Source of the DNA: Methanobacteriota archaeon
GTDB taxonomy: Archaea > Halobacteriota > Methanomicrobia > Methanomicrobiales > Methanospirillaceae
Assembly: GCA_029547605.1 (NCBI GenBank)
Contig: JAKPPB010000003.1
Location: 36,212 to 100,211 of the forward strand
Direction of reading: 5' to 3'
Length of the DNA: 64,000 nt
Below, in pieces: positions 1 to 60,223 of this stretch. The notes beneath the pieces were generated by a model. It worked only from the letters and a program-made list of their open reading frames with translations, made no database searches and had not been told where the DNA came from. The translations under genes and the position numbers were made by a program. Within the stretch, counting starts at the first letter, position 1, and each line of letters begins with the position of its first letter.

Positions 1-414
1 GGGCTCTCCAAGGAAGGCACCAGGGTTGCATTCGGAGGTGAAGGAAACGGCGGGCTGATATTCCCCGCGCACCAGTTCTGCAGGGACGGGGGTATGACCG
101 CCGCAACGATGGTAGCCCTGCTCGCGGAAGCCCGGCAGCCACTTTCCGCGCTCATCGACGCGCTCCCGCAATTCTTCATGATAAAGGAGAAGTTTCGCGA
201 AATGGATGCTTCGGGACTTATAAAACGCCTGATCGAGGCATTTTCAGGTGATTCGCTCGACCTGACCGACGGGATCCGCATCAACCGTGAAGACTCGTGG
301 GCCCTGGTACGGCCTTCCGGGACAGAACCACTCGTGAGGGTGATGGTGGAGTCGCTCTCGGAGACCCGGGCAAGGGAGTTTTACGAAGAACTCATGGTGC
401 ACATCAGGCCCTGA
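1..414 (+). CDS. alpha-D-phosphohexomutase family protein (phosphoglucosamine/phosphomannomutase-like), C-terminal fragment; 5' end lies outside the window
   Basis: Frame 1 is open from base 1. The translation reads GLSKEGTRVAFGGEGNGGLIFPAHQFCRDGG..., followed by the C-terminal 'VRPSGTEPLVRVMVES' motif typical of PGM/PMM enzymes. Confidence 0.8.
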   Translation, partial: GLSKEGTRVAFGGEGNGGLIFPAHQFCRDGGMTAATMVALLAEARQPLSALIDALPQFFMIKEKFREMDASGLIKRLIEAFSGDSLDLTDGIRINREDSWALVRPSGTEPLVRVMVESLSETRAREFYEELMVHIRP

Positions 415-751
415 CCCAGGGGCCTGTCTTTTTCCTTTCCGGGGAGGCCGAACCCGCTGGAGGGGATTTTCGCGACTATTCCTCCCGTGTGAGAATAAAG
501 TTCCCGAACCATTGGGCGTGGAGAGGGTGCTGTTCATCACACTTATACAGATAATTATGTGTCTTTTTTTCAAAAATAACGCGATAATGGGGTTTTATTT
601 GGGTTAATCCGTCCAGGTTCATAAACCAGATAATGCGATATAATTGAGGGGCCGCGCCTCACGGGAATGCTGATAAGTACGCCCGTTGACAGATTTCTTT
701 GTGTTAAATTTCGCGGGGATGAGAGGACCCGCGCGGATTCAACAAGTGAAC

Positions 752-1036
752 ATGAAGACCGTGGAGATCCGCATCTCCGGAAGAGTCCAGAAGGTGGGGA
801 TGCGTAACTGCGTGCGGCATATTGCCGGAACACTCAGTATCAGGGGTGATGTGATGAACCTGCCCGACGGGACCGTCAGGATACGGGCAACCGGAGACTC
901 CCTCACCCTCGACAAGTTCATCTCTATGCTCTACGGGTGCCCGCGAGCCCTGATCAGGGATGTCGAGGTCATGGACATCCCATATACCCCGTTTCCGGAC
1001 TTTGCTGTGGTCAGGGCAGAAGAGGGGACGGATTAG
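752..1036 (+). CDS. acyP: acylphosphatase
   Basis: A roughly 94-aa product starts at the internal ATG 752 (MKTVEIRISGRVQKVGMRNCVRHIA...). The 'V.G.VQGVGFR'-like motif and the size fit acylphosphatase. The longer ORF from 686 has no recognisable N-terminal extension. Confidence 0.8.
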   Translation: MKTVEIRISGRVQKVGMRNCVRHIAGTLSIRGDVMNLPDGTVRIRATGDSLTLDKFISMLYGCPRALIRDVEVMDIPYTPFPDFAVVRAEEGTD

Positions 1037-1950
1037 CGTCCCTCGCAGGAGAGGACGAGGTAATCCTCCTTTCTTATCAGTGCGTCCCGGAGCGCCATCA
1101 CCTGCTCGTCGATAATGTCCTGGCGGATACGTTCCTGGAGCGCTTTCGTGAGCGCCTGAAGGAGTTCATCGCCGAGAATGCAGCGGGATGGGGTGCATTC
1201 GTAGTCCTCTTCTGCGAGTCCTCCCCGCGCAATGGCTGATACCGCGCTGTCCACCATCGCCGGTTTAAAGGGGTCAATTATGTCATAGACAAGGCCACCC
1301 TTGCCCTTGTGCAAAAAACCCATGTCCGGATCCAGGTGCGCCCCTATGGCCGTTACGCAGGCATTGCCAAAGAGAATGCCATATCCAAAGGAGAGCATAG
1401 TGTTTACCACATCCACGTGTGGGCGGGCAGTCCTGCGGCGGAAGCCGAGTTCAGGGGGAACGGTCCTTGCAAGAATCTCGTAATACATGTCCGAGACGAG
1501 GCGGTGGACCCGCCGGAGCTCTTCCATCCTGACCAGGAACTCGAGCTCGGCATAACTCTTCTCGAGGATCTCAAGCTCACCCTCGTAAAAAAGGGGTTCA
1601 TCCTTATGTTCCTGGAGCCCGACAAGCGCCTGAATCCGGGAATGGACACTGCCTTTTGCGACCGCCAGGGCAAATGAATGGGAGAATGCCTTTGACTGCG
1701 CCTCCCTGACAACCTCGTCATAGCGGAATCCGAATGGCCGGAGGACCCCCAGAGGCTCACCGTCAGCTTCAAAAAAGGAGATGCAGGATCCCGATGCGAG
1801 CAGCCGAGAAATCACCGAGGTGTGAAGGGAATGGCCCCCCATCACCAGGAGGTGCCTCACCCTGGAAAGTGGCAACTCTTCAATTTTCCCGTTCTTCTGC
1901 ACGATCAGGGCCCGCGGCGTTGCCTTAAGGTGGGCCCCGAATCCTGACAC
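1033..1950 (-). CDS. cas1: Cas1-family protein, stand-alone (no cas2 or CRISPR array anywhere in the window)
   Basis: 305 aa. The N-terminal beta-domain pattern is present (ALIVQKNGKIEELPLSRVRHLLVMGGHSLHTSVISRLLASGSCISFF..DGEPLG). C-terminal Cas1 signatures are 'PHVDVVNTMLSFGYGILF' and 'GFLHKGKGGLVYDIIDPFKP' (conserved His and Asp..Asp). Confidence 0.75.
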   Translation of the reverse strand: MSGFGAHLKATPRALIVQKNGKIEELPLSRVRHLLVMGGHSLHTSVISRLLASGSCISFFEADGEPLGVLRPFGFRYDEVVREAQSKAFSHSFALAVAKGSVHSRIQALVGLQEHKDEPLFYEGELEILEKSYAELEFLVRMEELRRVHRLVSDMYYEILARTVPPELGFRRRTARPHVDVVNTMLSFGYGILFGNACVTAIGAHLDPDMGFLHKGKGGLVYDIIDPFKPAMVDSAVSAIARGGLAEEDYECTPSRCILGDELLQALTKALQERIRQDIIDEQVMALRDALIRKEDYLVLSCEGR

Positions 1951-2282
1951 CAGATACCAGGGGACGGGGACGATGATTCACTGCTCCTTTTCCACCCTGT
2001 GCGAGGGGGTTTATCGATATACTCATTTCCAGGATTCTGCTACTTCAATGCATCGTCGACACGGGTGATCGCCGATGAGGGTAGGGGGAATCGCAGAAAT
2101 CCTCGATCGCCATGCCATGACTTGACAATGTTTTTCATCCGCCGGTGCAAGATTCTATGAGAAGCCCACGTCGGATCTGCGCCCACGACAATTCCCTCCT
2201 CGTGGAGCAGAAGGAACAGGCTGGACTGGTGGCAGAATGAGAGCGATTAACGGAGTCCGAGAGGACCTGGGGACCCGAGACC

Positions 2283-3572
2283 ATGTTCTGGGATGAGAAG
2301 ACCGAGACCCTCCCAAAAAAAGACCTTGAGGAACTGCAGCTGAAACGTCTCAAGAAGACCGTTGCACAGGTCCAGAACGTGGAGTTTTACAGGAGGTTAC
2401 TCCGGGAAGCCCAGGTAAGACCTGAAGATATCAGGACTCTTGCAGACATCGAGAAGATCCCCTTTACAAGGAAGCAGGACCTTCGTGACGGATACCCGTT
2501 CGGGTTTTTTGCCGTGCCCATCCACAAGGTAGTGCGCATCCACACCACTTCCGGGACAACCGGAAAACCGACTGTGGTGGGGTATACCCGGAAAGACCTT
2601 GAGACGTGGGCAGATCTGATTGCAAGGAACATGACGATGGTAGGGCTGACGGACCGGGACATCTTCCAGAACATGGTCAACTACGGGATGTTCACCGGGG
2701 GCCTGGGGTTCCACTATGGTGCCGAGAAAATCGGCATGACGGTGATCCCGAGCGCGACCGGGAACACCAGGAGACAGATCGAGATGATCCAGGATTTCGG
2801 GGTAACAGCGATCCACTGCACGCCCAGTTATGGAATGCACCTCGCAGAGGTTGCCGAAGAGACGGGCGCTCACCTGGAATCCCTCACCACAGGACTTTTT
2901 GGCGCGGAGCCATGGTCGGACGCGATGCGGGCAGAACTTGAGAAGAAGCTCGGGGTGACTGCATTTGACTCCTACGGCCTCTCGGAACTCTTCGGGCCCG
3001 GTGTGGCATTCGAATGCCCCGAACGGGATGGCCTGCACATATGGCACGACTGCTACCTAGTCGAGATCATCGATCCCCGGACCGGGGAGACGCTCGGCGA
3101 CGGGGAGCGGGGCGAACTCGTGGTCACCCCGCTTGTCAAGGAGGCCATGCCACTTCTGCGCTACCGCACGGGTGACATCACTATGCGCTTCGAAGACGAA
3201 TGCCTCTGCGGACGGGCAAAAAAGATTGCACGGATTACCGGGAGGAGTGACGATATGCTGGTCATAAGGGGTATTAATGTGTTTCCGTCGCAGATCGAGC
3301 ACGTACTGCTGCGGATACCAGAGGTGGGGAACCATTTTATGGTATACGTTGACCGGGTCAACCACCTGGATGAGATGACGATCGACGTTGAGATCAACCG
3401 TGACTACTTCTCGGGCGAACTCCAGGACCTTGCCCGGATACAGAAGAAAGTGGTAAAGGAACTGCGGGACACGCTGGAGCTTCGCACCACCGTCAAGCTG
3501 GTGGAGCCTGGTTCCCTCCCACGGTTCGAGGGGAAGGCAAAACGGGTGATCGACCGCAGGGGTGAGATGTGA
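2283..3572 (+). CDS. paaK: phenylacetate-CoA ligase family adenylate-forming enzyme (PaaK / coenzyme F390 synthetase-like), copy 1
   Basis: 429 aa. Motifs present are 'TSGTTGKPTVVGYT', 'YGLSE' and 'GRSDDMLVIRGINVFPSQIE', plus the C-terminal 'LPRFEGKAKRVIDRR'. Confidence 0.85.
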   Translation: MFWDEKTETLPKKDLEELQLKRLKKTVAQVQNVEFYRRLLREAQVRPEDIRTLADIEKIPFTRKQDLRDGYPFGFFAVPIHKVVRIHTTSGTTGKPTVVGYTRKDLETWADLIARNMTMVGLTDRDIFQNMVNYGMFTGGLGFHYGAEKIGMTVIPSATGNTRRQIEMIQDFGVTAIHCTPSYGMHLAEVAEETGAHLESLTTGLFGAEPWSDAMRAELEKKLGVTAFDSYGLSELFGPGVAFECPERDGLHIWHDCYLVEIIDPRTGETLGDGERGELVVTPLVKEAMPLLRYRTGDITMRFEDECLCGRAKKIARITGRSDDMLVIRGINVFPSQIEHVLLRIPEVGNHFMVYVDRVNHLDEMTIDVEINRDYFSGELQDLARIQKKVVKELRDTLELRTTVKLVEPGSLPRFEGKAKRVIDRRGEM

Positions 3573-4873
3573 TGAGGGCATGGGATCCCCGAATAGAAGA
3601 GATGCCGAAAGCCGATCTTGCGGCAATGCAATACCGGCTTCTCAAGACCCTCGTCTATCGACTTTACAGCTTCAGCCCTTTTTTCCACCGCCGCATGGAG
3701 GAGAGCAGGGTCCATCCCGACGATATCAGGTCACTTGAAGATATCAGGAAGCTCCCCTTCATGTACAAGCGCGACCTCCGGGACAACTACCCGGACGGGC
3801 TCTTTGTCTGCACACAGGACGACCTGGTGAGGTACCATGTGTCGTCCGGGACCACGGGTAAACCCACGGTCGTAGGATATACCGAGAGGGATCTTGAGAA
3901 CTGGACCGCCTCTCTTGCACGGGGGCTTGTCTCCTGTGGACTCGGGAGGGGGGACGTCATCCAGGTCAGCTACGGATACGGCCTCTTCACCGGCGGGCTT
4001 GGACTGCACTACGGGGCGGAACGGATCGGCGCGACCGTGCTCCCGACAAGTGTCGGGAACACCGAGCGTCAGATCGAGCTGATGCAGGACCTCAAGGCTA
4101 CCGCGATCGCATGCACTCCATCCTACCTCCTCCACATGGGAGAAGTTGCCGAGAAGATGGGGGTCAGCATCAAGGACGACACACTCCTGAAAGTGGGGAT
4201 CCTTGGCGCTGAGCCCTGGTCGGAGAAAATGCGGCAACGGATCCAGGAGTGGCTCGGGATCCGTGCGTACGACATTTACGGCACCAGCGAGCTCTCAGGT
4301 CCGATGTTCTGCGAGTGCACCGAGCAGAAAGGGTTCCACGTCTGGGGTGACCTTGCCTACGTAGAGATCCTCGACCCCGAGACGCTTGAACCACTGCCTG
4401 CAGGTGAGCGGGGGGAGATGGTGATCACCATGCTGCAGAAGGAAGCGCTTCCCATGGTGAGGTACAGGATCGGGGACATCAGCGCAATCGACGACTCGGT
4501 TTGCGCGTGCGGGCGGACCCACCCGCGGGTGCAGCGAATCACCGGGAGGGTCGACGACATGCTGATCATCAGGGGGATCAACGTCTTCCCCTCGCAGATT
4601 GAGTATGCCCTGATGTCAATCCCGGAGGTAGGGCAGCACTTCCAGATCATAGTGGACAGGAAAGGCGCACTTGATGACATGCTCGTCCAGGTTGAAGTGA
4701 AGAAAGAAGCATTCTCGGACAAGATCACCGACCTGATGAGCATAAGGAAGAAGGTTGAGCACAAGCTCAAGAATATCCTCAACGTGGCAGTGAATGTCGA
4801 ACTTGTCGAGCCAGGATCGCTGCCCAGGTTCGAGGGGAAGGCAAAGCGGGTGATCGACAGGAGGAAGATCTGA
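3572..4873 (+). CDS. paaK: phenylacetate-CoA ligase family enzyme, copy 2 (paralogue of the upstream gene)
   Basis: It carries the same motif set (SSGTTGKPTVVGYT, GRVDDMLIIRGINVFPSQIE, LPRFEGKAKRVIDRR). ATG 3572 shares one base with the upstream TGA stop (TGATG). The ORF track starts 3 nt earlier at a GTG. Confidence 0.85.
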   Translation: MRAWDPRIEEMPKADLAAMQYRLLKTLVYRLYSFSPFFHRRMEESRVHPDDIRSLEDIRKLPFMYKRDLRDNYPDGLFVCTQDDLVRYHVSSGTTGKPTVVGYTERDLENWTASLARGLVSCGLGRGDVIQVSYGYGLFTGGLGLHYGAERIGATVLPTSVGNTERQIELMQDLKATAIACTPSYLLHMGEVAEKMGVSIKDDTLLKVGILGAEPWSEKMRQRIQEWLGIRAYDIYGTSELSGPMFCECTEQKGFHVWGDLAYVEILDPETLEPLPAGERGEMVITMLQKEALPMVRYRIGDISAIDDSVCACGRTHPRVQRITGRVDDMLIIRGINVFPSQIEYALMSIPEVGQHFQIIVDRKGALDDMLVQVEVKKEAFSDKITDLMSIRKKVEHKLKNILNVAVNVELVEPGSLPRFEGKAKRVIDRRKI

Positions 4874-4874
4874 T

Positions 4875-5309
4875 ATGAAAGAGAACAAGTTCGTGATCAA
4901 GCAGATATCGGTATTCTCTGAGAACAAGCCTGGCCGGCTCGCGGCCATCGCCAGGGCGCTGCAGGAGGAGAAGATCAACATCATGGCATTCTCCATCGCC
5001 GAGGCAGATGGCTTTGGGGTGGTTCGGGCGCTCGTTGACAAGCCGAAGAAAGCACACGAGAAGCTTGGAAAGCTTGGATTCAACGTGGCATTCACCGATG
5101 TGATCGCAGTCCAGATGAAGGACGAGCCTGGCGGCCTCTACGAGACCGCACGGATCCTGGGAGAAGGGCAGATTAACATCGAGTATGCCTATGCATACTC
5201 GGGAAAAGAGGCCGCGGTCCTTATCCTGCGGGTTGACAACGTGGAGGCGGCGATTGCCGCGATCCAGAAGGGCGGAGGGACGCTCATCGAGAGCTCCCTC
5301 TTCCAGTAA
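4875..5309 (+). CDS. tandem ACT-domain small-molecule-binding protein
   Basis: 144 aa with two ACT-like halves (ISVFSENKPGRLAAIARAL...; MKDEPGGLYETARILGE...). It starts 1 nt after the paaK2 stop. Confidence 0.8.
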   Translation: MKENKFVIKQISVFSENKPGRLAAIARALQEEKINIMAFSIAEADGFGVVRALVDKPKKAHEKLGKLGFNVAFTDVIAVQMKDEPGGLYETARILGEGQINIEYAYAYSGKEAAVLILRVDNVEAAIAAIQKGGGTLIESSLFQ

Positions 5310-5317
5310 ACCCCCCC

Positions 5318-6604
5318 TCACTTCTTCTCCCACCTGACCAGCTCAGAGACTCGGGAAAGGGTGCTGCCTCTCCGGATCTCCTCCCTGACTCTCTCTTCGG
5401 TCTTCTTTACTTCCATCGCCCGGCGGGCAACCTCGAATGCCCGCTCCCGCGGGACCACCACCACCCCGCTCTCATCCCCGGCAACCCAGTCCCCGGGGCG
5501 CACCACCTGGCCGCCGCACCGGATCTCGGCATTGATCTCGCCAAATCCCTTGGGCTCGCCTGCATTCGGGACCACGGCACGGGAAAAGACGGGGAAGCCC
5601 AATCTCCGGATGTCGTCCACGTCCCGGACGGCTCCATCGATCACAATACCAGAGAGCCCGCGCTTCATCGCGCTCAGGGTGGCAAGCTCTCCCCAGCATG
5701 CCACATGCCTGGCACCCTGGTTGTCGATCACCAGCACGTCACCCGGAGCGGCCACATCGATTGCTTCGACCGGTTTGGCCCAGTCTCCCGCAAACCCCTG
5801 AACAGTCACGGCCTTTCCCGCTATCCTTGTGCCCCCGCAGATTGGAGATATCCCCTCCATGGCGCCCTTCCGGTGCATCGCATCAGAGATATTCGGAGTG
5901 GAGACGACGCGCAGGATATCGCGTATTGCCTGTTCCGGGGAGACATGCTCTTCGCGGGAGAGTGAGGGGTTATCGATTGCGTGCCTGATCGACCTGGCCG
6001 ATGCTGCCACTTCGGCTGAACGGGTGATTGCCCCTCCTACAATGACCACATCCGCACCCCCCATGACTGCCTGCGGTGCCGTGGTTGCATCAAGGCCTCC
6101 CGCAGCGGCAACCATGACATTCACCGCGTCTCTCAAAGCGGTGAGCATCGAGAGAGAGCTCTTCCCGATCATCTGCTGGTCGATCCCGACATGGGCGTTG
6201 ACGATATGCACTCCCATCTTCTCCAGTTCGCGGGCGCGTTCGACCGGGGAACGGACATTGATCAGGTCTGCCATCAGCTTCACGCCGTACAGGTCCGCGG
6301 CCCGGACCGCCTCGGCGATCACGGTGTCGTCCGCGTCGGCAAGGATGCAGACCACAGAGGCACCTGCCTTGGCAGCCATCTCCACCTCAAGCGTGCCCGT
6401 GTCTGCGATCTTCATGTCCGCCACGATCTCCCGGCCAGGGAAGAGAGCGCGGAGCTTCCTCACCGCTTCCATCCCCTCGCTCTTGATCAGCGGGGTTCCC
6501 GCCTCGATCCAATCGGCTCCCCCCTCCACCGCCTCCCGGGCAATCTGGACGGCCCGATCAAGTTCCGTGATGTCCAGGGCCACCTGGAGGATAGTCCGCT
6601 TCAT
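5318..6604 (-). CDS. 3-hexulose-6-phosphate synthase-like (OMP-decarboxylase fold) domain fused to an RraA-like (aldolase/'ribonuclease regulator') domain
   Basis: The N-terminal half, '[11 protein letters not shown]...[13 protein letters not shown]...[11 protein letters not shown]', matches the HPS/KGPDC family. The C-terminal half, '[11 protein letters not shown]...GDVLVID...ACWGELATL...DGAVRD', matches the RraA family. The start is taken at the MKRTILQ Met (6604). Confidence 0.8.
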
Positions 6605-6654
6605 AAGAGAGGTGTGGCACGCCATGGGCTAAATGGTTGCTGACCGAGGGCTGC

Positions 6655-6783
6655 GCCCCTCGACCCCCGGGCGACCTCTCGGTCGCCGCCCTTTATCAGT
6701 TTCTCCTATGCTGTATGGGTTCCGCTGCATACGCTGCCGCCCCTCCACACCCGGGTGATCTGCCATTCACCGCTCTTTATCCT
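6655..6783. repeat. two roughly 45-nt direct repeat units, each a small hairpin followed by CTTTATC
   Basis: Unit a (6655-6699) is gcccctcgacccccgggcgacctctcggtcgccgccctttatcag. Unit b (6739-6783) is gcccctccacacccgggtgatctgccattcaccgctctttatcct. The stems differ (ggcgacc/ggtcgcc versus ggtga/tcacc) but both remain self-complementary. Confidence 0.5.
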
Positions 6784-6851
6784 TTTTACCAATGGAGAAT
6801 GGTCGAATCCCCTCACCAAGCCCGCGCAATCGCGAAAGGAGTGAGGTTGTG

Positions 6852-7216
6852 TTTCATTTTTGATACAGTTTAAACCGATACCTGTGACCGGAGGGGGGAG
6901 AATCCCCCCTCCGGACCACCCCCAATACGCGATAGCGTGCAGGGAGAGTAAACTGGAAAGACCCGGATAATGACTGATATCTATCTCTTATCCTACCCCT
7001 TGTCGGTGACCATACCTATATATGGCTGGGCGAAGCCCCAAGAGCCTTATCGTTAGAGAGTGCGGCCTATTTCATCTTGGAACAGACTAGATTGGAACCC
7101 GTAACCGGATGGGGGAAAATCCCCCCTCAAGACCAAACCCCCAATACGCGATAGCGTGCAGAGTGAGTAAACTGGAAAACCTCTGATAATTACAGATCAT
7201 CTCTGATTCTATCCTG
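6852..7216. repeat. diverged tandem duplication (about 145-nt units, about 217-nt period) with a near-identical 44-nt core
   Basis: Unit 1 spans about 6852-6996 and unit 2 about 7069-7216. The shared core is ccccaatacgcgatagcgtgcag(g/a)g(a/t)gagtaaactggaaa, with only 2 mismatches, while the flanks have diverged. Unit 1 contains a perfect 11-bp hairpin, CCGGAGGGGGG-agaat-CCCCCCTCCGG, at 6888-6914. Confidence 0.7.
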
Positions 7217-7351
7217 TTTCGGGGCTGCTTAAGAGTGTGGGGAGAAACCCGAAAAGGTTCATCGGGGGTGAAGTACCGGTAGAGTTCGCCCGATGAACAG
7301 GGCATGCCCGGAACATAAGCGAGCACACCCCCGCAACAAAGGGCAATGTGC

Positions 7352-7861
7352 CTATTGCTGTTCCTTAAACTTCTCAAAGAAGGTAATGTTGTCCAGATCC
7401 TTCTTCTTCTGGATTGTGATTTCGGCCGGGAAACCAGCTGGGACGAGCGAAACGAGGGTATAGCCATCCGGGACGTCCAGAAGCTTCCTGACCGCCTCTG
7501 CATACTCCTTCTTCTCCCCCGCGACCCAGCAGCTCCCCACGCCATACGACTGGAGGGCGAGGATGATCGTCTCCGTGGCCGCGCAGCAGTCTTCGAGGTA
7601 GTATTTCGCCCCCTTCTCGCCAAACACCGCAATGCAGAGCGCAGCGCTTCTAATGAACTTCCCATGATCTGTGAGGTCCGCGATCTTCCCAAGGAGGGAT
7701 TTCTCACGGACAATACCAAAGAGCCATGGCTGGAGGTTCATTGCCGTCGGGGCATGCCTCGCGCATTCGAGGACGTCCCTGATTATGTTCTCGTCCACAG
7801 GGTCGGGTTTATATTTGCGGACGCTATGGCGTGACTTGATAATCGTAGTGCCTACGTTCAT
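7352..7861 (-). CDS. nitroreductase-family oxidoreductase
   Basis: 169 aa. 'IIKSRHSVRKYKPDPVDENIIRDVLECARHAPTAMNLQPW' is the classic nitroreductase N-terminal signature. Confidence 0.8.
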   Translation of the reverse strand: MNVGTTIIKSRHSVRKYKPDPVDENIIRDVLECARHAPTAMNLQPWLFGIVREKSLLGKIADLTDHGKFIRSAALCIAVFGEKGAKYYLEDCCAATETIILALQSYGVGSCWVAGEKKEYAEAVRKLLDVPDGYTLVSLVPAGFPAEITIQKKKDLDNITFFEKFKEQQ

Positions 7862-7924
7862 GGAGATTCCATCTGCACATGAGGAAAAAAAGGTGTCTTC
7901 ATTGGGCAGCCCCGGTTGTGAGAG

Positions 7925-8959
7925 TCAGGGTGATCTCTGATTCAGGACTGCTACCGTAAGTGCTGCAACAACTCCCAGGACTGCCAGATATCCCCCAAAC
8001 CCGGGCATCGGGGTCGACGAAGGTGTGGGCTGCGGGGGAGTTCCGGTCTCCAGGACCGTTGGCGGTTCAGTGGATGCGGAGGGGGCAGGACTCGTCATTG
8101 TCGCCTCGACCGTTCCCGCAGTGATGGTGGGTTGCGGAGCAGTGGTCGCTGGAACGGGCGTCGTTCCGGTGATAAGGGGGTTTACCCTCTGGAGAAGGAA
8201 CGAGACCTTCTCACTGATTGCCTTCCCGGCAGCAGGGTAATTGTCGGACATCCCGTTCGCGTCGCACCGGGCATACACAGTATACTCGCCAATCGGATAC
8301 TCCGCGCTCCCTGTAGCCCATACCGGCCCCGTCTCGAATGGTGACGACGAGACGACCAGGTTCTCGAGTGAAAATCCCCCAAGAGAGGAGAATACGAGCG
8401 AGTCCGGCCCGTTCAGCCTGACCTTCAGTGGGGCACCGGGAGTTCCCGGCCGGTTGGCCATCACCCACAGGTTTGTCTCGATCCGAAATCCCACCGCATC
8501 TCCCTTGGGGATCCAGGATGCAGCCGGACTGACGACGAACCCTGATGAGTAGTCCACGACCCGGATCTCAATGTGTGGCTCCTCCAGGTAAAATGCGACT
8601 GTGTTGGAAGGCAGGAGGAACCATGGCCCGGTCTTCCCTGCAAAAGTGATCGGAGACGCGTAAAACGCGGTCGGGTCCGCGACTGTCACCTGCGCGGAGG
8701 GCACGTGCGAGACCTGCCCGCCCGTCCCATACCACGCAAGAGTGTCACCCTGCGTGGCACCCGTCCCGGTGATATCCAGGTTCTCCTCACCCACAAAGAC
8801 AGTCCCTCCCATGGGTATGGCATTCTCCGCCGCGGAAAGCGGAACAATCACGATGAGAGTGGTGCAAAGGAAAAAGACCGCCGCAAGACTCAGTCTGCCT
8901 GTCGCCGATCGGTGCATACACAGGTGAGCACACCCGTCGTCATAAACCTTCTCAGGCAA
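7925..8959 (-). CDS. secreted surface (S-layer-type) protein with a PGF-CTERM archaeosortase sorting signal
   Basis: It has an N-terminal signal/TM segment (LSLAAVFFLCTTLIVIVPLSAAE) and a Thr/Pro-rich linker. The C-terminus reads 'PMPGFGGYLAVLGVVAALTVAVLNQRS' (PGF motif, TM helix, basic tail). The true start may be the internal Met at about 8917. Confidence 0.7.
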   Translation of the reverse strand: MPEKVYDDGCAHLCMHRSATGRLSLAAVFFLCTTLIVIVPLSAAENAIPMGGTVFVGEENLDITGTGATQGDTLAWYGTGGQVSHVPSAQVTVADPTAFYASPITFAGKTGPWFLLPSNTVAFYLEEPHIEIRVVDYSSGFVVSPAASWIPKGDAVGFRIETNLWVMANRPGTPGAPLKVRLNGPDSLVFSSLGGFSLENLVVSSSPFETGPVWATGSAEYPIGEYTVYARCDANGMSDNYPAAGKAISEKVSFLLQRVNPLITGTTPVPATTAPQPTITAGTVEATMTSPAPSASTEPPTVLETGTPPQPTPSSTPMPGFGGYLAVLGVVAALTVAVLNQRSP

Positions 8960-8981
8960 AAAAATTAGGACAGCCCTTTCC

Positions 8982-10190
8982 TCACGTCCATGAAAACAAG
9001 CCCGTGACGGCGTTCCACATGTTGGAGAGGCCCTGGGTGATCAGCACGCCCGGGTCGATCCCAAGCACCGGGAAGATGAACATGAAGTAAAGGATGGTCC
9101 CAAGCGTGCTCCCCAGGTTGGCAAGCGCGGCAACGAGTACGACCCGGAAGAGTGGCACCTTCATCATCTGAGAGAAACTCTCGGCCTCGAATATCCGGCG
9201 GAAGTCTGCAGGAGCCGGTTTTCGTATCCTGGCCTCCACGATAGCCGCAAACCACCCTGCCGCGACCAGCGGGTTCAGAGCCGTGAACCAGGAGACGCCA
9301 AACCCGGTGAGCGCGGAGAGGGGATGGCCTCGGGCAGCGAGGGTAAATACCGCGGTCAGGACACCATGGACCAGCACCCAGTAGAGGAGGGCCATTCCCA
9401 GCACCTCGAGGCCGACACCCGAGAACGCGATCGCAAGGAGCAGGAAGAGGAAGAGCGCAGTCACCGCGACCCCGAAGATAAGGCCCCATGGCCTGGACTT
9501 CATCTCGGCCGTCAATTCCCCCAGGGGGGGCAGGGTCTCGGGCGCATCAAGGTATTTCATGACCCCCTGGACATGCCCCGCCCCGAGGACCGCGAGGACC
9601 CGGGAATGTCCTTCCATGAGGCCCGCGATGTGATGGGCAAGGTACGCATCCCTTTCATCAATGAGCGCCCTCGCACCATTCGGGGAGAACTTCCTGAACT
9701 CATCCATGGCCATGGTGAGCATGTCCTGCTCTTTCAGACTCTCCACATCGATCTCCTCGCCGTCGATGCTGACGACTGAGACTGCGAGCGCGTAGAGCAT
9801 CTTCAGCTTCTCAAGGAACGAGAGCGATTTCCAGAACCTGCGGAGAGTGATATTGATATCACGGTCGACCAGGCCGATTGCAATCCCACGGGATTCCGCC
9901 TCCTCAATGGCGGCTTTCATCTCGGCGCCAGGTTCCACACCAAGGTCGAGCCCTATCCGGCGCTGGAGGTAGGCAAGGATCCACTGCACGAGGACCTGGG
10001 TGAAGTTTTTTGCCTCCAGGATGTCCTGCACCGACGGATCCCTTGCCTGTTTCCTGATCACGGCATAACGGGCAGGATCCAGTTCCACTGCAATGACATC
10101 AGGGGAGAACTCATCGATGGCCCTCCTGACCTCCTCGACACTCTTTGCCGAGACATGCGCGGTGCCCACGACACGGAGTTCGCCTTTCAT
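8982..10190 (-). CDS. TraB/GumN-family protein with C-terminal membrane domain
   Basis: 'ELRVVGTAHVSAKSVEEVRRAIDEFSPDVIAVELD' is the TraB-family N-terminal motif. The C-terminal third is hydrophobic. The start codon forms an ATGA overlap with the upstream gene's stop. Confidence 0.8.
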   Translation of the reverse strand: MKGELRVVGTAHVSAKSVEEVRRAIDEFSPDVIAVELDPARYAVIRKQARDPSVQDILEAKNFTQVLVQWILAYLQRRIGLDLGVEPGAEMKAAIEEAESRGIAIGLVDRDINITLRRFWKSLSFLEKLKMLYALAVSVVSIDGEEIDVESLKEQDMLTMAMDEFRKFSPNGARALIDERDAYLAHHIAGLMEGHSRVLAVLGAGHVQGVMKYLDAPETLPPLGELTAEMKSRPWGLIFGVAVTALFLFLLLAIAFSGVGLEVLGMALLYWVLVHGVLTAVFTLAARGHPLSALTGFGVSWFTALNPLVAAGWFAAIVEARIRKPAPADFRRIFEAESFSQMMKVPLFRVVLVAALANLGSTLGTILYFMFIFPVLGIDPGVLITQGLSNMWNAVTGLFSWT

Positions 10191-10747
10191 ACCCGCGTCA
10201 CTCCCTCCCCGTCGACGACAAGGCACCCATTCTCCCGCGGAATCCCGATAGAGATTGCCCGGCGGATCTTCTCTCCTTCTTGCTCCTCTGCAGCCCGCCG
10301 CTCACGCAGGGCTCGGGCCAGGGCGCGTGCCTCCTCCCGGCCAATGGGACGCCCGAGCCCAGGGCAGGGAGACGTCAGCAGGTCCTCGCCGTCAAGCATG
10401 AACGGATATGTGCGGCATATCCACGGTCTTTCGGCATAGACCTGGCAGGACCCCTCTCGATAGAACATGCAGTCACCCGAAATCCGCCGGACCGCCCATC
10501 CGAATGTGACCTCTGTGCCGTCGCAAAGCTTCACGCGCTCGGGATAGGGCTCGGCACACTCTTCGGCACGCAGGTGGCAAAGGGAGGATATCCGGCGGAT
10601 CTCGGCGGGTGAGACCATGACAAGGTTGTCGTCTCCTGCTCCCTGGCGGCAGCACTCCCCGCACCTGGTGCAGGAGAACCCGATCTCCCTGATGCGCGCA
10701 GTCAGTCGCTCCTCGTCCATGGATGCCCCGTATTCGTTCATGGTCAC
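10187..10747 (-). CDS. YkgJ/UPF0153-type Cys-cluster (Zn/Fe-chelating) protein
   Basis: It carries 'FSCTRCGECCR' plus later Cys residues (CAEPYPE..LCDG, GDCMFY, GSCQVYAERPWICRTYPF). An alternative ATG start lies at 10741. Confidence 0.65.
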   Translation of the reverse strand: MTMNEYGASMDEERLTARIREIGFSCTRCGECCRQGAGDDNLVMVSPAEIRRISSLCHLRAEECAEPYPERVKLCDGTEVTFGWAVRRISGDCMFYREGSCQVYAERPWICRTYPFMLDGEDLLTSPCPGLGRPIGREEARALARALRERRAAEEQEGEKIRRAISIGIPRENGCLVVDGEGVTRV

Positions 10748-11301
10748 TCTTCCCTGCAGATTGCGTCAAAATTCTGGTAGACTCTGCGGCCGTCCCGCGT
10801 ATGGCTGACCTCGGGGTGCCACTGAAGACCGTAAATACGAAGATCGGGCCTTGCGATTGCCTCGTGGGCACATATGGAAGACCGTGCAAGCAGCCGGAAC
10901 CCTGGGGGAATCACCGCTACCTCGTCGGCATGTGAAGCCCACACCTGGAGCGTCGCCGGGTACCCCGCGAGGATCCCCCCCTCCTCGACCACGTCTACCT
11001 CCACGGGACCATACCCGCCTGACCTCCCCGGCTGCACCCTGCCCCCAAATTCTGTTGCAATGATGTGAAGGCCCAGACATATCCCGAGGACAGGGAGATC
11101 GAGGTGAAGGTACTGGGCAGCACACCCGCTTCGCCCGATATCCGGCCCGCCTCCAAGCACAATCCCCCGGCATGCCCCTGCCATCTCGTCCGGAGGGGTG
11201 GTGTTCGGGACCAGCCTTGCATTGATTTCAAGGTCCCGGAACATTCGAAGGATGAGGTGGTTGAACTGCCCGAAGTTGTTCACCACGTATATAGGGAGCA
11301 T
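10744..11301 (-). CDS. guaAA: GMP synthase, glutamine amidotransferase subunit A
   Basis: 'MLPIYVVNNFGQFNHLILRMFRDL...GIVLGGGP...LPVLGICLGLHI...LQWHPEV' gives the class-I GATase Cys/His motifs. The roughly 185-aa size is typical of the archaeal split GuaA. Confidence 0.85.
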   Translation of the reverse strand: MLPIYVVNNFGQFNHLILRMFRDLEINARLVPNTTPPDEMAGACRGIVLGGGPDIGRSGCAAQYLHLDLPVLGICLGLHIIATEFGGRVQPGRSGGYGPVEVDVVEEGGILAGYPATLQVWASHADEVAVIPPGFRLLARSSICAHEAIARPDLRIYGLQWHPEVSHTRDGRRVYQNFDAICREE

Positions 11302-11514
11302 GATCTTCACAAGAATGGCTGCTTAAAGTTCAAAATGCCTCCGGCATTCTCATGGTGGCGGCGCGCAGCCGGGCGAGATGCCTTTGTCCCGCGTTCTCCA
11401 TGACGGCTCTCTCGTGAGAGGTGCCGGGTTCCAGGAGTACCCGGAAGAGGGCCTTTCTGGGCGCATGTGACCCATGCAAGCCTCTGGTGCCTCCCTTGAG
11501 ATTGGGTGCACAGT

Positions 11515-12645
11515 TCATTGGTAAGATGCGACTGTTTCAAAGATCTTCTCCCTGATTGCGGAGGGAGAGTGGCCAAGCAGGTATGCCATGAACATCGCCC
11601 CGCCTGCACCCATTCCCTCCTTGACTTCCCCTATGCAGTACCGCGCAAGGCCCGAGTGCCCGAGATCCCCGAATCCGGGATCAACGTATACCACTTCGGC
11701 CCCGATGTTGTGTGCAATCTCGGAAAAATTCGCGGACCTGTCATCCCTGACATAGACAGTCGTTGCGATCAGGGGGAGGGGAATGCCCATCGCCTTCATC
11801 ACTGCCGCCACGGCAAGCATCTGGGTGCCCCCTGCCAGCACCATCTGACGGGTGCAGGTGCTTCCCAATCCTGCACACAGGGCGATCATCGGGTCCCCGC
11901 AGCACCTTATGAGATCAAGAGGTGATCGATCACTCTCCGCTTCGATCCTGCGGGCAACCGCGTCCCATACCTCTTCCTTCATCCTGACAGGGTTCTCGAC
12001 GAAACTGGAGCTGACCCTCGCAGGGTACCCGAGCGAACGAAGGACACAGAGAGCCGTGGTGGTCCCCCCGGGGACACATTCGCCTACCACCAGCAGGTCG
12101 CACCACCGGGACAAAAATTCACCAAGTGAACGACCGGACTGGTAGAGCTCCCGTGCGAGTGGCACCGCGTCCATGAACCGGGGATCGTTCCCGGGCTCAC
12201 CATACACATCCATGCACGGGACAGTAGGGCGGAAAGAGAGCCCGGCATTGATGAACAGGGCTCCTGTCCCGCAGAGTTCCATGATGGAGCGGGTAATTGA
12301 CGCAGGAGTAGGACAGCCGGTAGGAGTGTCGGGCCTCGCCGGCATACTGGTGATCGAACCCCTCGCTATCAGTTCCGCATCGAGAATCGGAGTGAGCAGG
12401 GTCTTCTCCGGCGTGGGCCCGGCCCCCGAGATGCCCGGTACCACAGAGAGCATCGTATTTGCAAGGATGCTGCAGAATAGGGGGCGTTCTGCAGCGATAC
12501 CTGGATCTTTCGAGAGGAATGCCATGCACGCACTCTTCCTAACCATCGGTACTGTGGATCCATCAACATAGCGCTTGACCAGAATGAGTGGCAACCCTGA
12601 TAAACCCGGAAACGAGACCTGTGTGAGAAGAAGGATACCTGTCAT
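11515..12645 (-). CDS. cobT: archaeal-type nicotinate-nucleotide:dimethylbenzimidazole phosphoribosyltransferase (CobT-like, UPF0284/TIGR00303 family)
   Basis: 'FCSILANTMLSVVPGISGAGPTPE...' and 'GECVPGGTTTALCVL' are family-typical, and the gene sits next to cobS. The true start is probably an internal Met (about 12540), not 12645. Confidence 0.7.
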   Translation of the reverse strand: MTGILLLTQVSFPGLSGLPLILVKRYVDGSTVPMVRKSACMAFLSKDPGIAAERPLFCSILANTMLSVVPGISGAGPTPEKTLLTPILDAELIARGSITSMPARPDTPTGCPTPASITRSIMELCGTGALFINAGLSFRPTVPCMDVYGEPGNDPRFMDAVPLARELYQSGRSLGEFLSRWCDLLVVGECVPGGTTTALCVLRSLGYPARVSSSFVENPVRMKEEVWDAVARRIEAESDRSPLDLIRCCGDPMIALCAGLGSTCTRQMVLAGGTQMLAVAAVMKAMGIPLPLIATTVYVRDDRSANFSEIAHNIGAEVVYVDPGFGDLGHSGLARYCIGEVKEGMGAGGAMFMAYLLGHSPSAIREKIFETVASYQ

Positions 12646-44313: not shown

Positions 44314-44387
44314 GGGCCCGTGGTCTAGTCGGTTATGACGTCGCCCTTACACGGCGGAGGTCGCCGGTTCGAATCCGGCCGGGCCCA
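44314..44387 (+). tRNA. tRNA-Val (anticodon UAC)
   Basis: The cloverleaf was folded by hand. The acceptor is GGGCCCG/CGGGCCC, the D-arm GTC..GAC, the anticodon stem TCGCC/GGCGG with loop CT-TAC-AC, and the T-arm GCCGG-TTCGAAT-CCGGC with discriminator A. No CCA is encoded, and a T5 run follows 8 nt downstream. Confidence 0.9.
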
Positions 44388-44491
44388 CTGGAATATTTTT
44401 CATCTCCCCTTCGTTACGTGTGCTGAAAACAAACGGGGAATATACTGATGGATAATCAGTCAGAAAACAGCCTTGTATCAATGATTATTTA

Positions 44492-58255: not shown

Positions 58256-58651
58256 ATGTCGCATTTTTCACGGGTGAAGACAGCCTTCAGGGACCGTTCA
58301 GTCCTTGCACAGTGCCTGGAGGAGATGGGCTACCAGGTCGAATGCGGGGGATCCGTCAGAGGATACCACGGTGTGCATCAGGTCGACCTGGCAGTTGCAG
58401 GACGGGATGGGTTCGGCGTGGGGTTCGTCCAGAACACCGACGGGTGCTACGACCTCCTTGCAGACTCGTGGGGAGTGAAGGGTGCGGACAGGAAGGTCCT
58501 TGAGAGATTGCGCCGGGACTATCCCCGCCTCCAGCAGGAATACGCAAGGAGGATGGTCCACGAGCAGGCCGTGCGTGAGGGCTACACCATGGTCGAAGAG
58601 GTGACGCAGGAGGACGGCAGTATCCGCATCGTGGTAAGGAGGTGGGCATGA
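58256..58651 (+). CDS. DUF1257 (Ycf35-like) protein
   Basis: 131 aa. 'MSHFSRVKTAFRDRSVLAQCLEEMGYQVE' and '...YDLLADSWG' match my memory of the DUF1257 N-terminal pattern. It starts 3 nt after the upstream stop, with SD GGAGGTG 10 nt upstream. Confidence 0.6.
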   Translation: MSHFSRVKTAFRDRSVLAQCLEEMGYQVECGGSVRGYHGVHQVDLAVAGRDGFGVGFVQNTDGCYDLLADSWGVKGADRKVLERLRRDYPRLQQEYARRMVHEQAVREGYTMVEEVTQEDGSIRIVVRRWA

Positions 58652-60216
58652 GTCCCGTGGGCGGAGAGCAGGACATCCCATCCCAGATCGACCTCTGCCT
58701 CCGGGCACGCATCACACTCCTCATCCTGCATACCGCGGAGGAGGAGAGGGCGATGCGCATGCTGCAGGACGTCTGCAGCCGTTTCTCCCCGAAAAGACCT
58801 TTTTTGGCCTGGGACATTGCGGAAGGGTTCTCAGGGGCAGGATATGGAGCAGGCAGGGGATCTCCTGCGAGAGACCCGCTCGTTGCCCTTGAAGAGATCG
58901 AGAAGACCGATGAGGCGGCCGTCATCGTGCTCAAGGATTTCCACGAGTTCTGGGGAAACCCCGGTGTGAAACGAAGGCTCCGGAACCTTGCCCAGAAGTT
59001 GCGGTTTACCCGGAGGACGATGGTGGTGGTAACTCCTTCTCTGAAGGTGCCTGATGAGATACGCGACGACGCCGTGGTGCTCCACGTGCCGCCGCCGTCT
59101 GCGAGGGAGCTTGAGCAGGAACTCGACCGGCTGCTGCGGGGGAGCGGGGTCGGCGATTCACTCACTCCCCTCGGTCGTGAGAAGTTGATACAGGCCGCGC
59201 TCGGGATGTCCCTCAACCAGGCATGCAGGTCGTTTGCGAAGGCGATCGTCCGTCACGGACGGCTCGATGACCGCGATATCGATGCCGTGGTCTCGGAGAA
59301 GAAAGACATCCTCTCCCAGAGCGAGGCCCTCGAGTTCTACAGCGCCACAGAGGCCGCGGAGAACGTGGGAGGCCTTGCGGTGCTCAAGGAGTGGCTCCGC
59401 CTCAGGGAGCGGGCCTTTTCACGCGAGGCGAGGGAATACGGGCTGCCTTCCCCCAAGGGCATCGCGCTGATTGGCATCCCCGGGACAGGAAAGAGCCTCA
59501 CGGCCAAGATGATTGCCGGGATGTGGAGGCTCCCGCTGCTCCGTCTCGACGTGGGAGCGCTCTTTGGGAGTTATGTGGGGGAGTCCGAGGAGCGGACGCG
59601 CCGCGCCCTTGCACTCGCCGAGACTATCTCTCCCTGCATCCTCTGGATCGACGAGATGGAGAAGGCGTTCTCCTTTGGAAACGGGGACTCGGGGACCAGC
59701 CAGCGGGTCTTCGCGAGCATCCTCACCTGGATGCAGGACAAGACCTCGCCCTGTTTCGTGGTGGCGACGGCCAACGACATCTCGGCACTCCCCCCCGAGC
59801 TCCTCCGCAAGGGTCGCTTTGACGAAGTGTTCTTCCTCGACCTCCCTTCCGTCGCGGAGCGCAGGGAGATCTTCTCGGTCCACCTGCGGAGGAGGGGACT
59901 TCTTCCGGACGATTTCGACCTGGATCACCTTGCGAGAGCGTCTGATGGGTACGTGGGTGCCGAGATCGAGCAGACAGTCATCGATGCCATGTACCACGCG
60001 TTCAACCAGGAGATGCGGCGGGTTTGCACTGGAGATATCCTCGCCGCGCTGGGTGCACAGGTGCCACTCTCGATCTCCCAGAAGGAGATCATCGGCGGAC
60101 TCCGGCAGTGGCTGACCGAGGGCAGGGCGCTCTCGGCATCCCCGCCATCGTCTCCTGCCGGCGTCTTGGGGGGTTCGATATGCCTTGAGCCTGTTCTCTC
60201 TCCCGGCGAACGGTGA
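58648..60216 (+). CDS. Ycf46-like AAA+ ATPase (classical-clade AAA module with about 250-aa N-domain)
   Basis: Motifs present are Walker A 'GIPGTGKSL', Walker B '[11 protein letters not shown]', sensor-1 'VVATAND' and the Arg-finger region '[16 protein letters not shown]'. ATG 58648 forms an ATGA overlap with the DUF1257 stop and is preceded by AAGGAGGTG. Confidence 0.8.
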
Positions 60217-60223
60217 ATCATCC

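Follow-up and report, generated by a model that had tools for sequence, protein, structure and literature searches.

A vertically inherited stand-alone Cas1 homologue of Methanomicrobiales without the canonical catalytic glutamate and its probable host role

Introduction

Why would an archaeal chromosome retain a Cas1 protein at a site where neither CRISPR with cas genes nor a casposon is found? This question is raised by a 64-kb stretch of contig JAKPPB010000003.1 (assembly GCA_029547605.1), referred to below as the window, i.e., the whole stretch of DNA that was analysed. Its open reading frame (ORF) at positions 1033..1950 of the (-) strand, with a GTG start and a length of 305 aa, encodes a protein of the two-domain Cas1 fold and is designated here as cas1-solo. 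CRISPR adaptation and casposons both have Cas1 as their hallmark integrase. According to the present analysis, the gene most plausibly represents an exapted, non-canonical and probably non-catalytic Cas1 with a host role, and a probability of about 0.6 was assigned to this reading.

Cas1-solo proteins were divided into two groups by Krupovic et al. (2014; BMC Biol 12:36, PMC4046053), citing Makarova et al. (2013). Group 1 was reported to be exclusive to Methanomicrobiales, to show no sign of horizontal gene transfer and to have no member with the full set of active-site residues; it was put aside there in favour of casposons, whose casposases keep all four catalytic residues. The view taken here had already been reached in that work from 8–9 sequences. 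The supplementary alignment of that work includes M. hungatei, M. formicica, M. boonei, M. petrolearius, M. palustris, M. marisnigri, M. bourgensis and M. labreanum, and its motifs are GFGAHIKST, GGHxxH and RRLxRLTxDMYYEI. The same description of group 1 was repeated in a 2023 review, and no functional study of the group after 2014 was found in the literature.

The motifs of the family studied here, GFGAH(I/L)K(S/A)T, GGHxxH and RRxxRLxxDMYYEI, match the published group 1 alignment, and the window gene is, as judged from its sequence, an ortholog of this group. The class is therefore already known. The original prediction had assigned the gene to a non-casposon solo group of unresolved function, which is supported, and the exact group had been published. 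Occurrence in Methanomicrobiales, the lack of CRISPR or cas neighbours and of signs of horizontal transfer, the incomplete catalytic tetrad and the signature motifs are all shared with group 1; nothing essential sets the window member apart, and it is another ortholog, from a Methanolinea-like genome. What is added beyond the published group is a set of about 200 sequences, relatives in 257 species genomes, the replacement of GxEG by RxHR, an order-wide synteny, an upstream element and a stop at codon 6.

Results

Cas1 homology and fold

The window protein matched the Pfam model Cas_Cas1 (PF01867) over residues 4–273 with an E-value of 4.1 × 10−52 (177.5 bits, cutoff 22.3) and the model TIGR00287 (cas1) with an E-value of 5 × 10−44 (150.7 bits, cutoff 71.7); it is a Cas1 homologue well beyond chance. 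The ORF was found as it had been described, and both motifs quoted for it, NTMLSFGYGILF and GFLH....LVYDIIDPFKP, lie within it. All subtype-specific Cas1 models remained far under their cutoffs (I-G, 113 vs. 560 bits; I-D, 109 vs. 385; I-B, 84 vs. 304). The closest solved structure was 4n06 (A. fulgidus Cas1, 2 × 10−14), with 7cr6 (Synechocystis) and 4xtk (T. maritima) also among the nearest. The AlphaFold2 model of the ORF from GTG1950 alone had a predicted local distance difference test score (pLDDT) of 89.8 and a predicted TM-score (pTM) of 0.83, and the model including the in-frame N-terminal extension described below had 93.2 and 0.91, respectively, with the extension joining the long N-terminal strand; it should be noted that the two models were built with different alignment depths, deeper for the extended version. 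The two-domain fold, with a beta-rich N-terminal part and a helical C-terminal part, is present in the model, and the top 50 Foldseek matches in the PDB were all Cas1 or casposase chains (TM-score 0.58–0.82).

With CRISPR-associated Cas1 proteins (TIGR00287; nearest subtype models I-G Cas4g/Cas1g and I-D Cas1d), the window protein shares the two-domain fold (TM-score up to 0.82; 7kft, 7cr6 and 6opm) and the shell motifs RRP..D..N, GY, G-F-L-H and DxxD/E-P-F-K/R. The solo family differs from them in having no cas2, array or cas genes nearby, in the replacement of Glu and both Gly of GxEG, in a catalytic His that is not conserved family-wide, and in further invariant residues peculiar to it. Casposases (Cas1-solo group 2, e.g., PDB 6opm) are likewise non-CRISPR Cas1 homologues of methanogenic archaea (TM-score 0.65–0.82), whereas none of their own features, namely, a full tetrad, a family-B DNA polymerase (PolB), terminal inverted repeats (TIRs) with target-site duplications and a patchy mobile distribution, is found here.

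The former catalytic site

The residues of the active site were compared in a family set of 206 sequences, of which 120 came from the protein search and the others were translations of genomic loci. The canonical GxEG motif aligned with R-V-H-R (residues 147–150, within RRVHRL) in three PDB alignments and in a MAFFT alignment with 77 canonical Cas1 proteins. Since the three PDB alignments set GxEG on R-V-H-R, the metal-binding Glu (E. coli E141) corresponds here to His149 (codon 1504..1506, (-) strand), which is flanked by Arg147 and Arg150 in place of both Gly. The family alignment and an hhalign comparison with E. coli K-12 Cas1 paired H208 with His214 (codon 1309..1311, (-) strand) and D218 and D221 with Asp223 and Asp226 of the YDIID segment (1273..1284, (-) strand); in the hhalign result, the E141 helix was broken by a gap of 8 residues, which is implausible and unreliable, and the Glu position rests on the three PDB and the 77-sequence alignments. 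The tetrad of the window protein reads H149-H214-D223-D226. The active-site His and Asp residues, previously recognised by eye, are indeed present as His214, Asp223 and Asp226, and the metal-binding Glu, about which doubt had been expressed, could not be located at first reading because it is absent, its place being taken by His149.

Position 149 was occupied by H in 171 family sequences, Y in 25, S and E in 4 each, and N in 2. At position 214, H was found in 159 sequences, whereas the remaining 47 had N (16), F (9), S (8), T (7), Y (4), R (2) or Q (1). Asp223 was present in 206/206, and position 226 was D in 104 and E in 100, with two non-acidic exceptions. Not one of the 206 sequences had the full E-H-D-D/E tetrad, the four with Glu149 having Asn214, and the E-H-D-E tetrad was found in all 77 nearest full-length canonical Cas1 proteins. 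Among 13 family representatives, H, L, D, F or N occurred at position 149 and H, F, T, N, S, P or Y at position 214. The entropy of position 214 was close to the family median (1.31 vs. 1.39); it therefore evolves like an average site.

Residues conserved specifically in the family

At least 98% conservation across the family was found at 45 positions. Some of them belong to the canonical shell (R172, R173, P177, D180, N183, G189, Y190, D223 and D234), the motifs of which, RRR-x2-RP-x2-D-x2-N, GY, G-x-L-x, D223 and D234, are kept. Others, conserved at the same level, lie outside the canonical motifs: H7, H40, D63, E125, E135, E144, R147, D154-M-Y-Y-E158, R256 and C257. In a direct comparison, H7, H40, D63, E125, R147 and E158 were not conserved in the 77 canonical Cas1 proteins. 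A family-specific stripe of E144, R147, D154 and E158 (at least 98%) and L151 (at least 90%) was mapped by conservation and the AlphaFold2 model to the predicted helix 142–163 (codons within 1477..1521, (-) strand). Helical periodicity suggests that these five residues share one helix face, different from that of position 149.

Phylogeny, selection and distribution

In a profile search covering 1.84 billion representatives, the family members scored from 525 down to 177 bits and, after a gap, canonical Cas1 proteins scored no more than 135 bits. The neighbour-joining tree, which took in the 77 nearest canonical Cas1 proteins and left out the published group 1 sequences themselves, grouped the family as a monophyletic clade (100/100 bootstraps), separate from CRISPR-associated Cas1. 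The pairwise ratio of nonsynonymous to synonymous substitution rates (dN/dS) between the window gene and its relatives was 0.05–0.13 (about 0.1), and the family is under purifying selection. On the terminal branch of the window gene, 9 changes were nonsynonymous and 16 synonymous, a pattern similar to that of its sister branch.

When each GTDB species was represented by one genome, the scan revealed relatives in 257 species-representative genomes. The best 80 of the 257 were all labelled Methanomicrobiales or carried broader archaeal names, which supports exclusivity to this order in part; the genera among the best 80 include Methanolinea, Methanoregula, Methanoculleus and Methanogenium, and the closest were Methanoregulaceae PtaB.Bin056 and Methanolinea sp. 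QR_Bin.1 (93% identity). No copies were found on IMG/VR viral contigs and none on plasmids, which held only canonical Cas1 (<30% identity).

CRISPR and casposon components in and near the locus

The lack of cas2, other cas genes, a CRISPR array, PolB and TIRs, which had been claimed for the whole 64 kb, was confirmed. TRF returned one trivial 11-nt repeat, a search for spaced direct repeats gave none, Rfam returned only tRNA-Val, and a comparison of the 61 other ORFs with PADLOC gave 11 families, none of them Cas. PolB was not among the ORFs of the window, the largest of which encode WD40, DUF2298, PheRS, AAA, PMT and similar proteins, and only chance-level imperfect inverted matches of 16–28 nt were found at positions 1–12000. 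Outside this gene, the window consists of ordinary methanogen chromosome, with genes for methenyl-H4MPT cyclohydrolase, PheRS, EF-1alpha, CetZ, POR and histidine biosynthesis. The interpretation of the locus as a casposon was rejected, given the lack of PolB and TIRs, the incomplete tetrad and the flanks, which consist of syntenic housekeeping genes in relatives. The PADLOC matches in the window included IetA-like, HEAT-ARM_XIII, mad2 and pVip/radical SAM families; these may be generic domain matches, with no ORF assigned.

Similarly, no cas genes or arrays stood beside cas1-solo in about 90 homologous loci, and a k-mer spacing scan of the flanks of 91 homologous loci (1.06 Mb) revealed no CRISPR-like arrays. 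A CRISPR-cas locus immediately past the window start had been considered as a possible objection; in the closest relative (93% amino acid identity, same synteny), the 6 kb past the left edge of the window contain genes for acylphosphatase, PGM, MobB, DUF5806 and a response regulator, and no cas genes. By its distribution and context, the gene is inherited vertically and behaves like a core chromosomal gene; it showed no association with cas2 or a CRISPR system, nor with casposons, viruses or plasmids.

Three loci flagged by the k-mer spacing scan (L003, L063 and L080) were rejected as tandem repeats. Those of L003 (1074–1240, 56-nt unit) and L063 (5452–5600, 48-nt unit) were read in sequence and are plain repeats of three copies each without spacers, and L080 was called from k-mer coverage alone.

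Gene neighbourhood

The acylphosphatase gene (686..1036, (+) strand, probable ATG at 752) is convergent with cas1-solo, with a 4-nt 3' overlap at 1033–1036, and a PaaK-like/PaaK-like/ACT cluster (2283..5309, (+) strand) is divergent from it; both relations had been described correctly. The cluster serves as synteny context and is not part of the element. The stand-alone position in a housekeeping context, also noted before, extends to 86 homologous loci of several genera, in which the gene order is kept: ACT <- PaaK <- PaaK, cas1-solo ->, <- acylphosphatase <- (PGM) <- MobB <- DUF5806. In essentially all of these Methanoregulaceae/Methanomicrobiaceae loci (L001–L086), acylphosphatase abuts cas1-solo, including those in which the PaaK side is rearranged (L042, L063, L046, L072 and L073), and the two genes overlap by up to 17 nt or are separated by up to 15 nt. 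Across the loci, PaaK proteins were 73–99% identical, whereas cas1-solo proteins were 46–93% identical.

The divergent members of the family have neither acylphosphatase nor PaaK as neighbours and occur in other housekeeping contexts, never with cas genes. In the three loci of the most divergent members, cas1-solo is translationally coupled, with a start/stop overlap, behind an archaemetzincin (Peptidase_M54) gene (L087, 1647–3196; L088, 1572–3109; L089, 199–1742), and further divergent members are found behind a glyoxalase-like gene or next to DeaD. Because the arrangement is convergent, the junction is variable and the pairing is absent in divergent lineages, the acylphosphatase link was treated as inherited synteny. 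Acylphosphatase was also considered as a stand-in for Cas2 and rejected, as it has no similarity to Cas2 and carries normal acylphosphatase motifs.

In two Methanoregula loci, a gene for a 1187-aa protein with no Pfam match on record lies between acylphosphatase and PGM (L003, 9207–12770; L004, 2745–6308). In many other loci, PGM is offset by ~4.1 kb, which suggests that they hold an insert of this kind as well; the window has none.

The N-terminus and the stop at codon 6

The 305-aa ORF is probably not the exact native product, because the conserved N-terminus is encoded in frame just upstream of it, after a TGA. The extension IIVPVPWYL (1951..1977, (-) strand) corresponds to the conserved N-terminal strand of the family, in which P-W is at least 90% conserved; this segment contains no ATG, GTG or TTG, and the conserved strand VPVPWYLV is encoded there in frame. 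The in-frame TGA (1978..1980, (-) strand) was identified by comparison with the closest relatives as codon 6 of the ancestral frame, and TGC (Cys) is found at this codon in the four closest (L007, L008, L009 and L039). The GTG at 1993..1995 ((-) strand) is homologous to the start codon of relatives (GTG/ATG-E-K-...), as established from the homologous loci, and the ancestral frame from it reads M-E-K-E-Q-C-I-I-V-P-V-P-W. An independent TAG is present at codon 5 of the frame, near 5340, in L011, which is another Methanolinea metagenome-assembled genome.

Two ATC codons are located at 1975–1977 and 1972–1974, and a GGAG at 1984–1987 lies 6–9 nt upstream of them. The TGA at codon 6 might be accommodated by a non-canonical or re-initiated start, by a start at GTG1950 with loss of the strand, or it might be a sequencing or assembly error. 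Selection on the window's own branch appears unchanged.

The upstream element and the promoter region

Comparison of the loci revealed a conserved element upstream of cas1-solo, GACGATGCATTGAAGTA (2041..2057, (-) strand; consensus aaAACGATGnnTTRAT). It is 15–17 nt long and lies 51–88 nt upstream of the segment coding for the conserved N-terminus, which is found at the start codon or directly behind it. The pattern CGATGNNTT[AG]A[TA] was found at that place in 73/85 loci of several genera, and elsewhere only five matches occurred in 978 kb on both strands; the window copy (2044–2056, (-) strand) was the sole match in 64 kb, with 0.03 expected. The element also accompanies cas1-solo without a PaaK neighbour (Methanoculleus loci L042 and L063), is present in two tandem copies in the Methanogenium locus L065 and had no match in the divergent operonic loci L087–L091. 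All variants seen permit a reading as ATG-NNT-T(A/G)A, which would be a mini-ORF of the form Met-X-stop, and the element is partly palindromic. It could be a specific operator, an unusual B recognition element/TATA box or a transcribed mini-ORF.

An AT-rich TATA-like block, GAGTATATC (2016..2024, (-) strand), is situated 14–18 nt downstream of the element across loci and about 21–31 nt upstream of the ancestral GTG; it is the probable core promoter of cas1-solo.

On the paaK side, a second conserved non-coding block, CATAGAAnCTTGnnCCGGCGGATGAAAAAnATTGTCAAGnCATGG, common to Methanolinea-clade loci, was found in the intergenic region (window about 2115–2165, read on the (-) strand), about 130–170 nt upstream of the paaK ATG, with further conserved stretches (TCATTCTGCCACC) nearer to paaK. 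These may represent the paaK promoter and a structured leader; Rfam returned nothing over these intergenic blocks.

Discussion

The preferred reading is that cas1-solo, a chromosomal gene present in one copy and inherited vertically, is a Cas1 paralog of Methanomicrobiales, which keeps the full two-domain fold and the shell of the substrate pocket but would have given up the canonical metal-dependent integrase/nuclease site; the canonical two-metal-type transesterification site would no longer be in use. Arg147 and Arg150 may occupy or neutralise the pocket lined by D223 and D/E226. As a pseudo-enzyme, the protein could act in a host process by binding nucleic acid or as a scaffold, combining the retained DNA-binding architecture of Cas1 with a new conserved surface (E144-R147-D154-E158, E125 and H7/H40/H43/D63), and its expression would be driven by a promoter of its own with a conserved control element specific to the gene. 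Continued binding of nucleic acid is suggested by the retained Cas1 shell, and a new interaction or ligand site by the invariant stripe together with the N-terminal His/Asp residues. As an analogy, the TnpB-derived TldR repressors are reportedly nuclease-dead derivatives exapted for host roles; they share with group 1 the loss of catalytic residues, a nucleic-acid-binding fold that is kept, purifying selection and vertical inheritance, but they belong to another protein family, and Cas1-solo group 1 is not known to have a guide RNA or a DNA target.

Several points weigh against this reading. The loss of catalysis was inferred from residue patterns; His149 is conserved in 83% of the sequences and thus does not vary freely; H-H-D-D/E, present in 133/206 members including the window protein, could still bind a transition metal; the invariant E125, E135, E144, D154 and E158 lie in helices around the old site, and for this reason a remodelled active site is possible. 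In addition, the neighbourhoods offer no functional clue, and the frame of this genome is stopped at codon 6, which makes the expression route of the full protein uncertain. The corresponding alternative is a remodelled active enzyme, in which H-H-D-D, or E125/E135/E144/D154/E158 with R147/R150, would bind another metal and the protein would serve genome maintenance as a nuclease or recombinase on branched or damaged DNA. It is consistent with H149 in 83% and H214 in 77% of the family, the invariant D223, the acidic position 226 in all but two sequences, the numerous invariant charged residues that the family has of its own near the old site and the strong purifying selection, and it was listed as the less likely option by Krupovic et al. 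(2014; PMC4046053). However, positions 149 and 214 become non-ligand residues (F, L, T, S, N, Y, R or Q) in many otherwise conserved lineages, position 214 evolves as an average site, and the E144-R147-D154-E158 stripe would face away from position 149, as helical periodicity indicates; the alternative is accordingly held to be unlikely, and it retains the weight that it has because of the members with the possible transition-metal set. A rather speculative reading, which should be regarded as doubtful, is that the Cas1 fold was rebuilt around new sites, the charged stripe E144-R147-D154-E158 with E125 and, in most lineages, a His/Asp cluster of the N-terminal domain (H7, H40, H43 and D63), binding a metal, a small ligand or a partner, and was placed under a dedicated order-wide control element, AACGATGnnTTRAT. 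If this were true, the protein would be an unrecognised housekeeping or stress-response factor of Methanomicrobiales derived from an integrase of a mobile element or CRISPR system.

Cas1 acts as dimers inside Cas1-Cas2 complexes. A role as a trans-acting accessory of CRISPR adaptation that pairs with Cas1-Cas2 encoded elsewhere, e.g., by serving as an inactive subunit or by regulating spacer acquisition, would agree with this and with the presence of both a solo and a canonical Cas1 in Methanoregula formicica (alignment of Krupovic et al., 2014), but it is improbable in view of the about 90 loci in which the gene is never linked to an array or to cas genes and of a fixed housekeeping position with vertical inheritance, as opposed to the patchy, mobile CRISPR-Cas loci. 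A local functional partnership, in which cas1-solo would regulate the divergent PaaK/ACT operon or work with the abutting acylphosphatase, could be supposed from the constancy of acylphosphatase as the abutting gene, even where the PaaK side is rearranged, and from the divergent PaaK gene in most loci. Acylphosphatase is a small protein of the ferredoxin-like fold, the general fold class of Cas2. Nevertheless, such a partnership appears very improbable: the convergent genes are not co-transcribed and their junction is not fixed, divergent members have Peptidase_M54, glyoxalase-like or DeaD genes in place of both neighbours, acylphosphatase has its usual catalytic-type motifs and no resemblance to Cas2, and cas1-solo keeps the upstream element in loci without PaaK. 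Finally, a decaying remnant, i.e., a pseudogene from a lost CRISPR-Cas locus or casposon, would explain the lost canonical catalytic residues, the TGA at codon 6 and the TAG at codon 5 in L011; for the family, this reading is effectively refuted by the dN/dS of about 0.1, the 16 synonymous vs. 9 nonsynonymous changes on the window's own branch, the ORF kept intact at about 305–320 aa in more than 200 sequences with relatives in 257 species genomes, the 45 positions conserved at 98% or more, the lack of TIRs, PolB and arrays, and the conserved upstream element.

If the preferred reading of an exapted, probably non-catalytic protein is correct, a Cas1 kept for another job across an order of methanogens would be a clear exaptation of an immune or mobile-element enzyme. 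No new type of element comes from this window; sampling more widely turns a remark based on 8–9 sequences into a firm, testable picture, with the old catalytic Glu and His as dispensable residues and R147, E125, E144, D154, E158, H40 and D223 as untouchable ones. The routine label 'CRISPR-associated endonuclease Cas1' on these genes misleads the inference of CRISPR content, and the conserved residues and the upstream element are concrete targets for study in tractable Methanomicrobiales.

Other features of the window

The segment 42000–46300 around tRNA-Val(TAC) (44314–44388) has a low GC content of 0.50–0.53, against about 0.58–0.62 elsewhere. It includes ~1.7 kb without an ORF of at least 80 aa, and the flanking methyltransferase and cupin genes have a low GC content at third codon positions; the stretch may be an old insertion site or plain non-coding DNA. 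At 58642–63076 ((+) strand), a gene for an AAA ATPase (524 aa) is overlapped by the downstream gene for a 963-aa WD40 multi-propeller protein.

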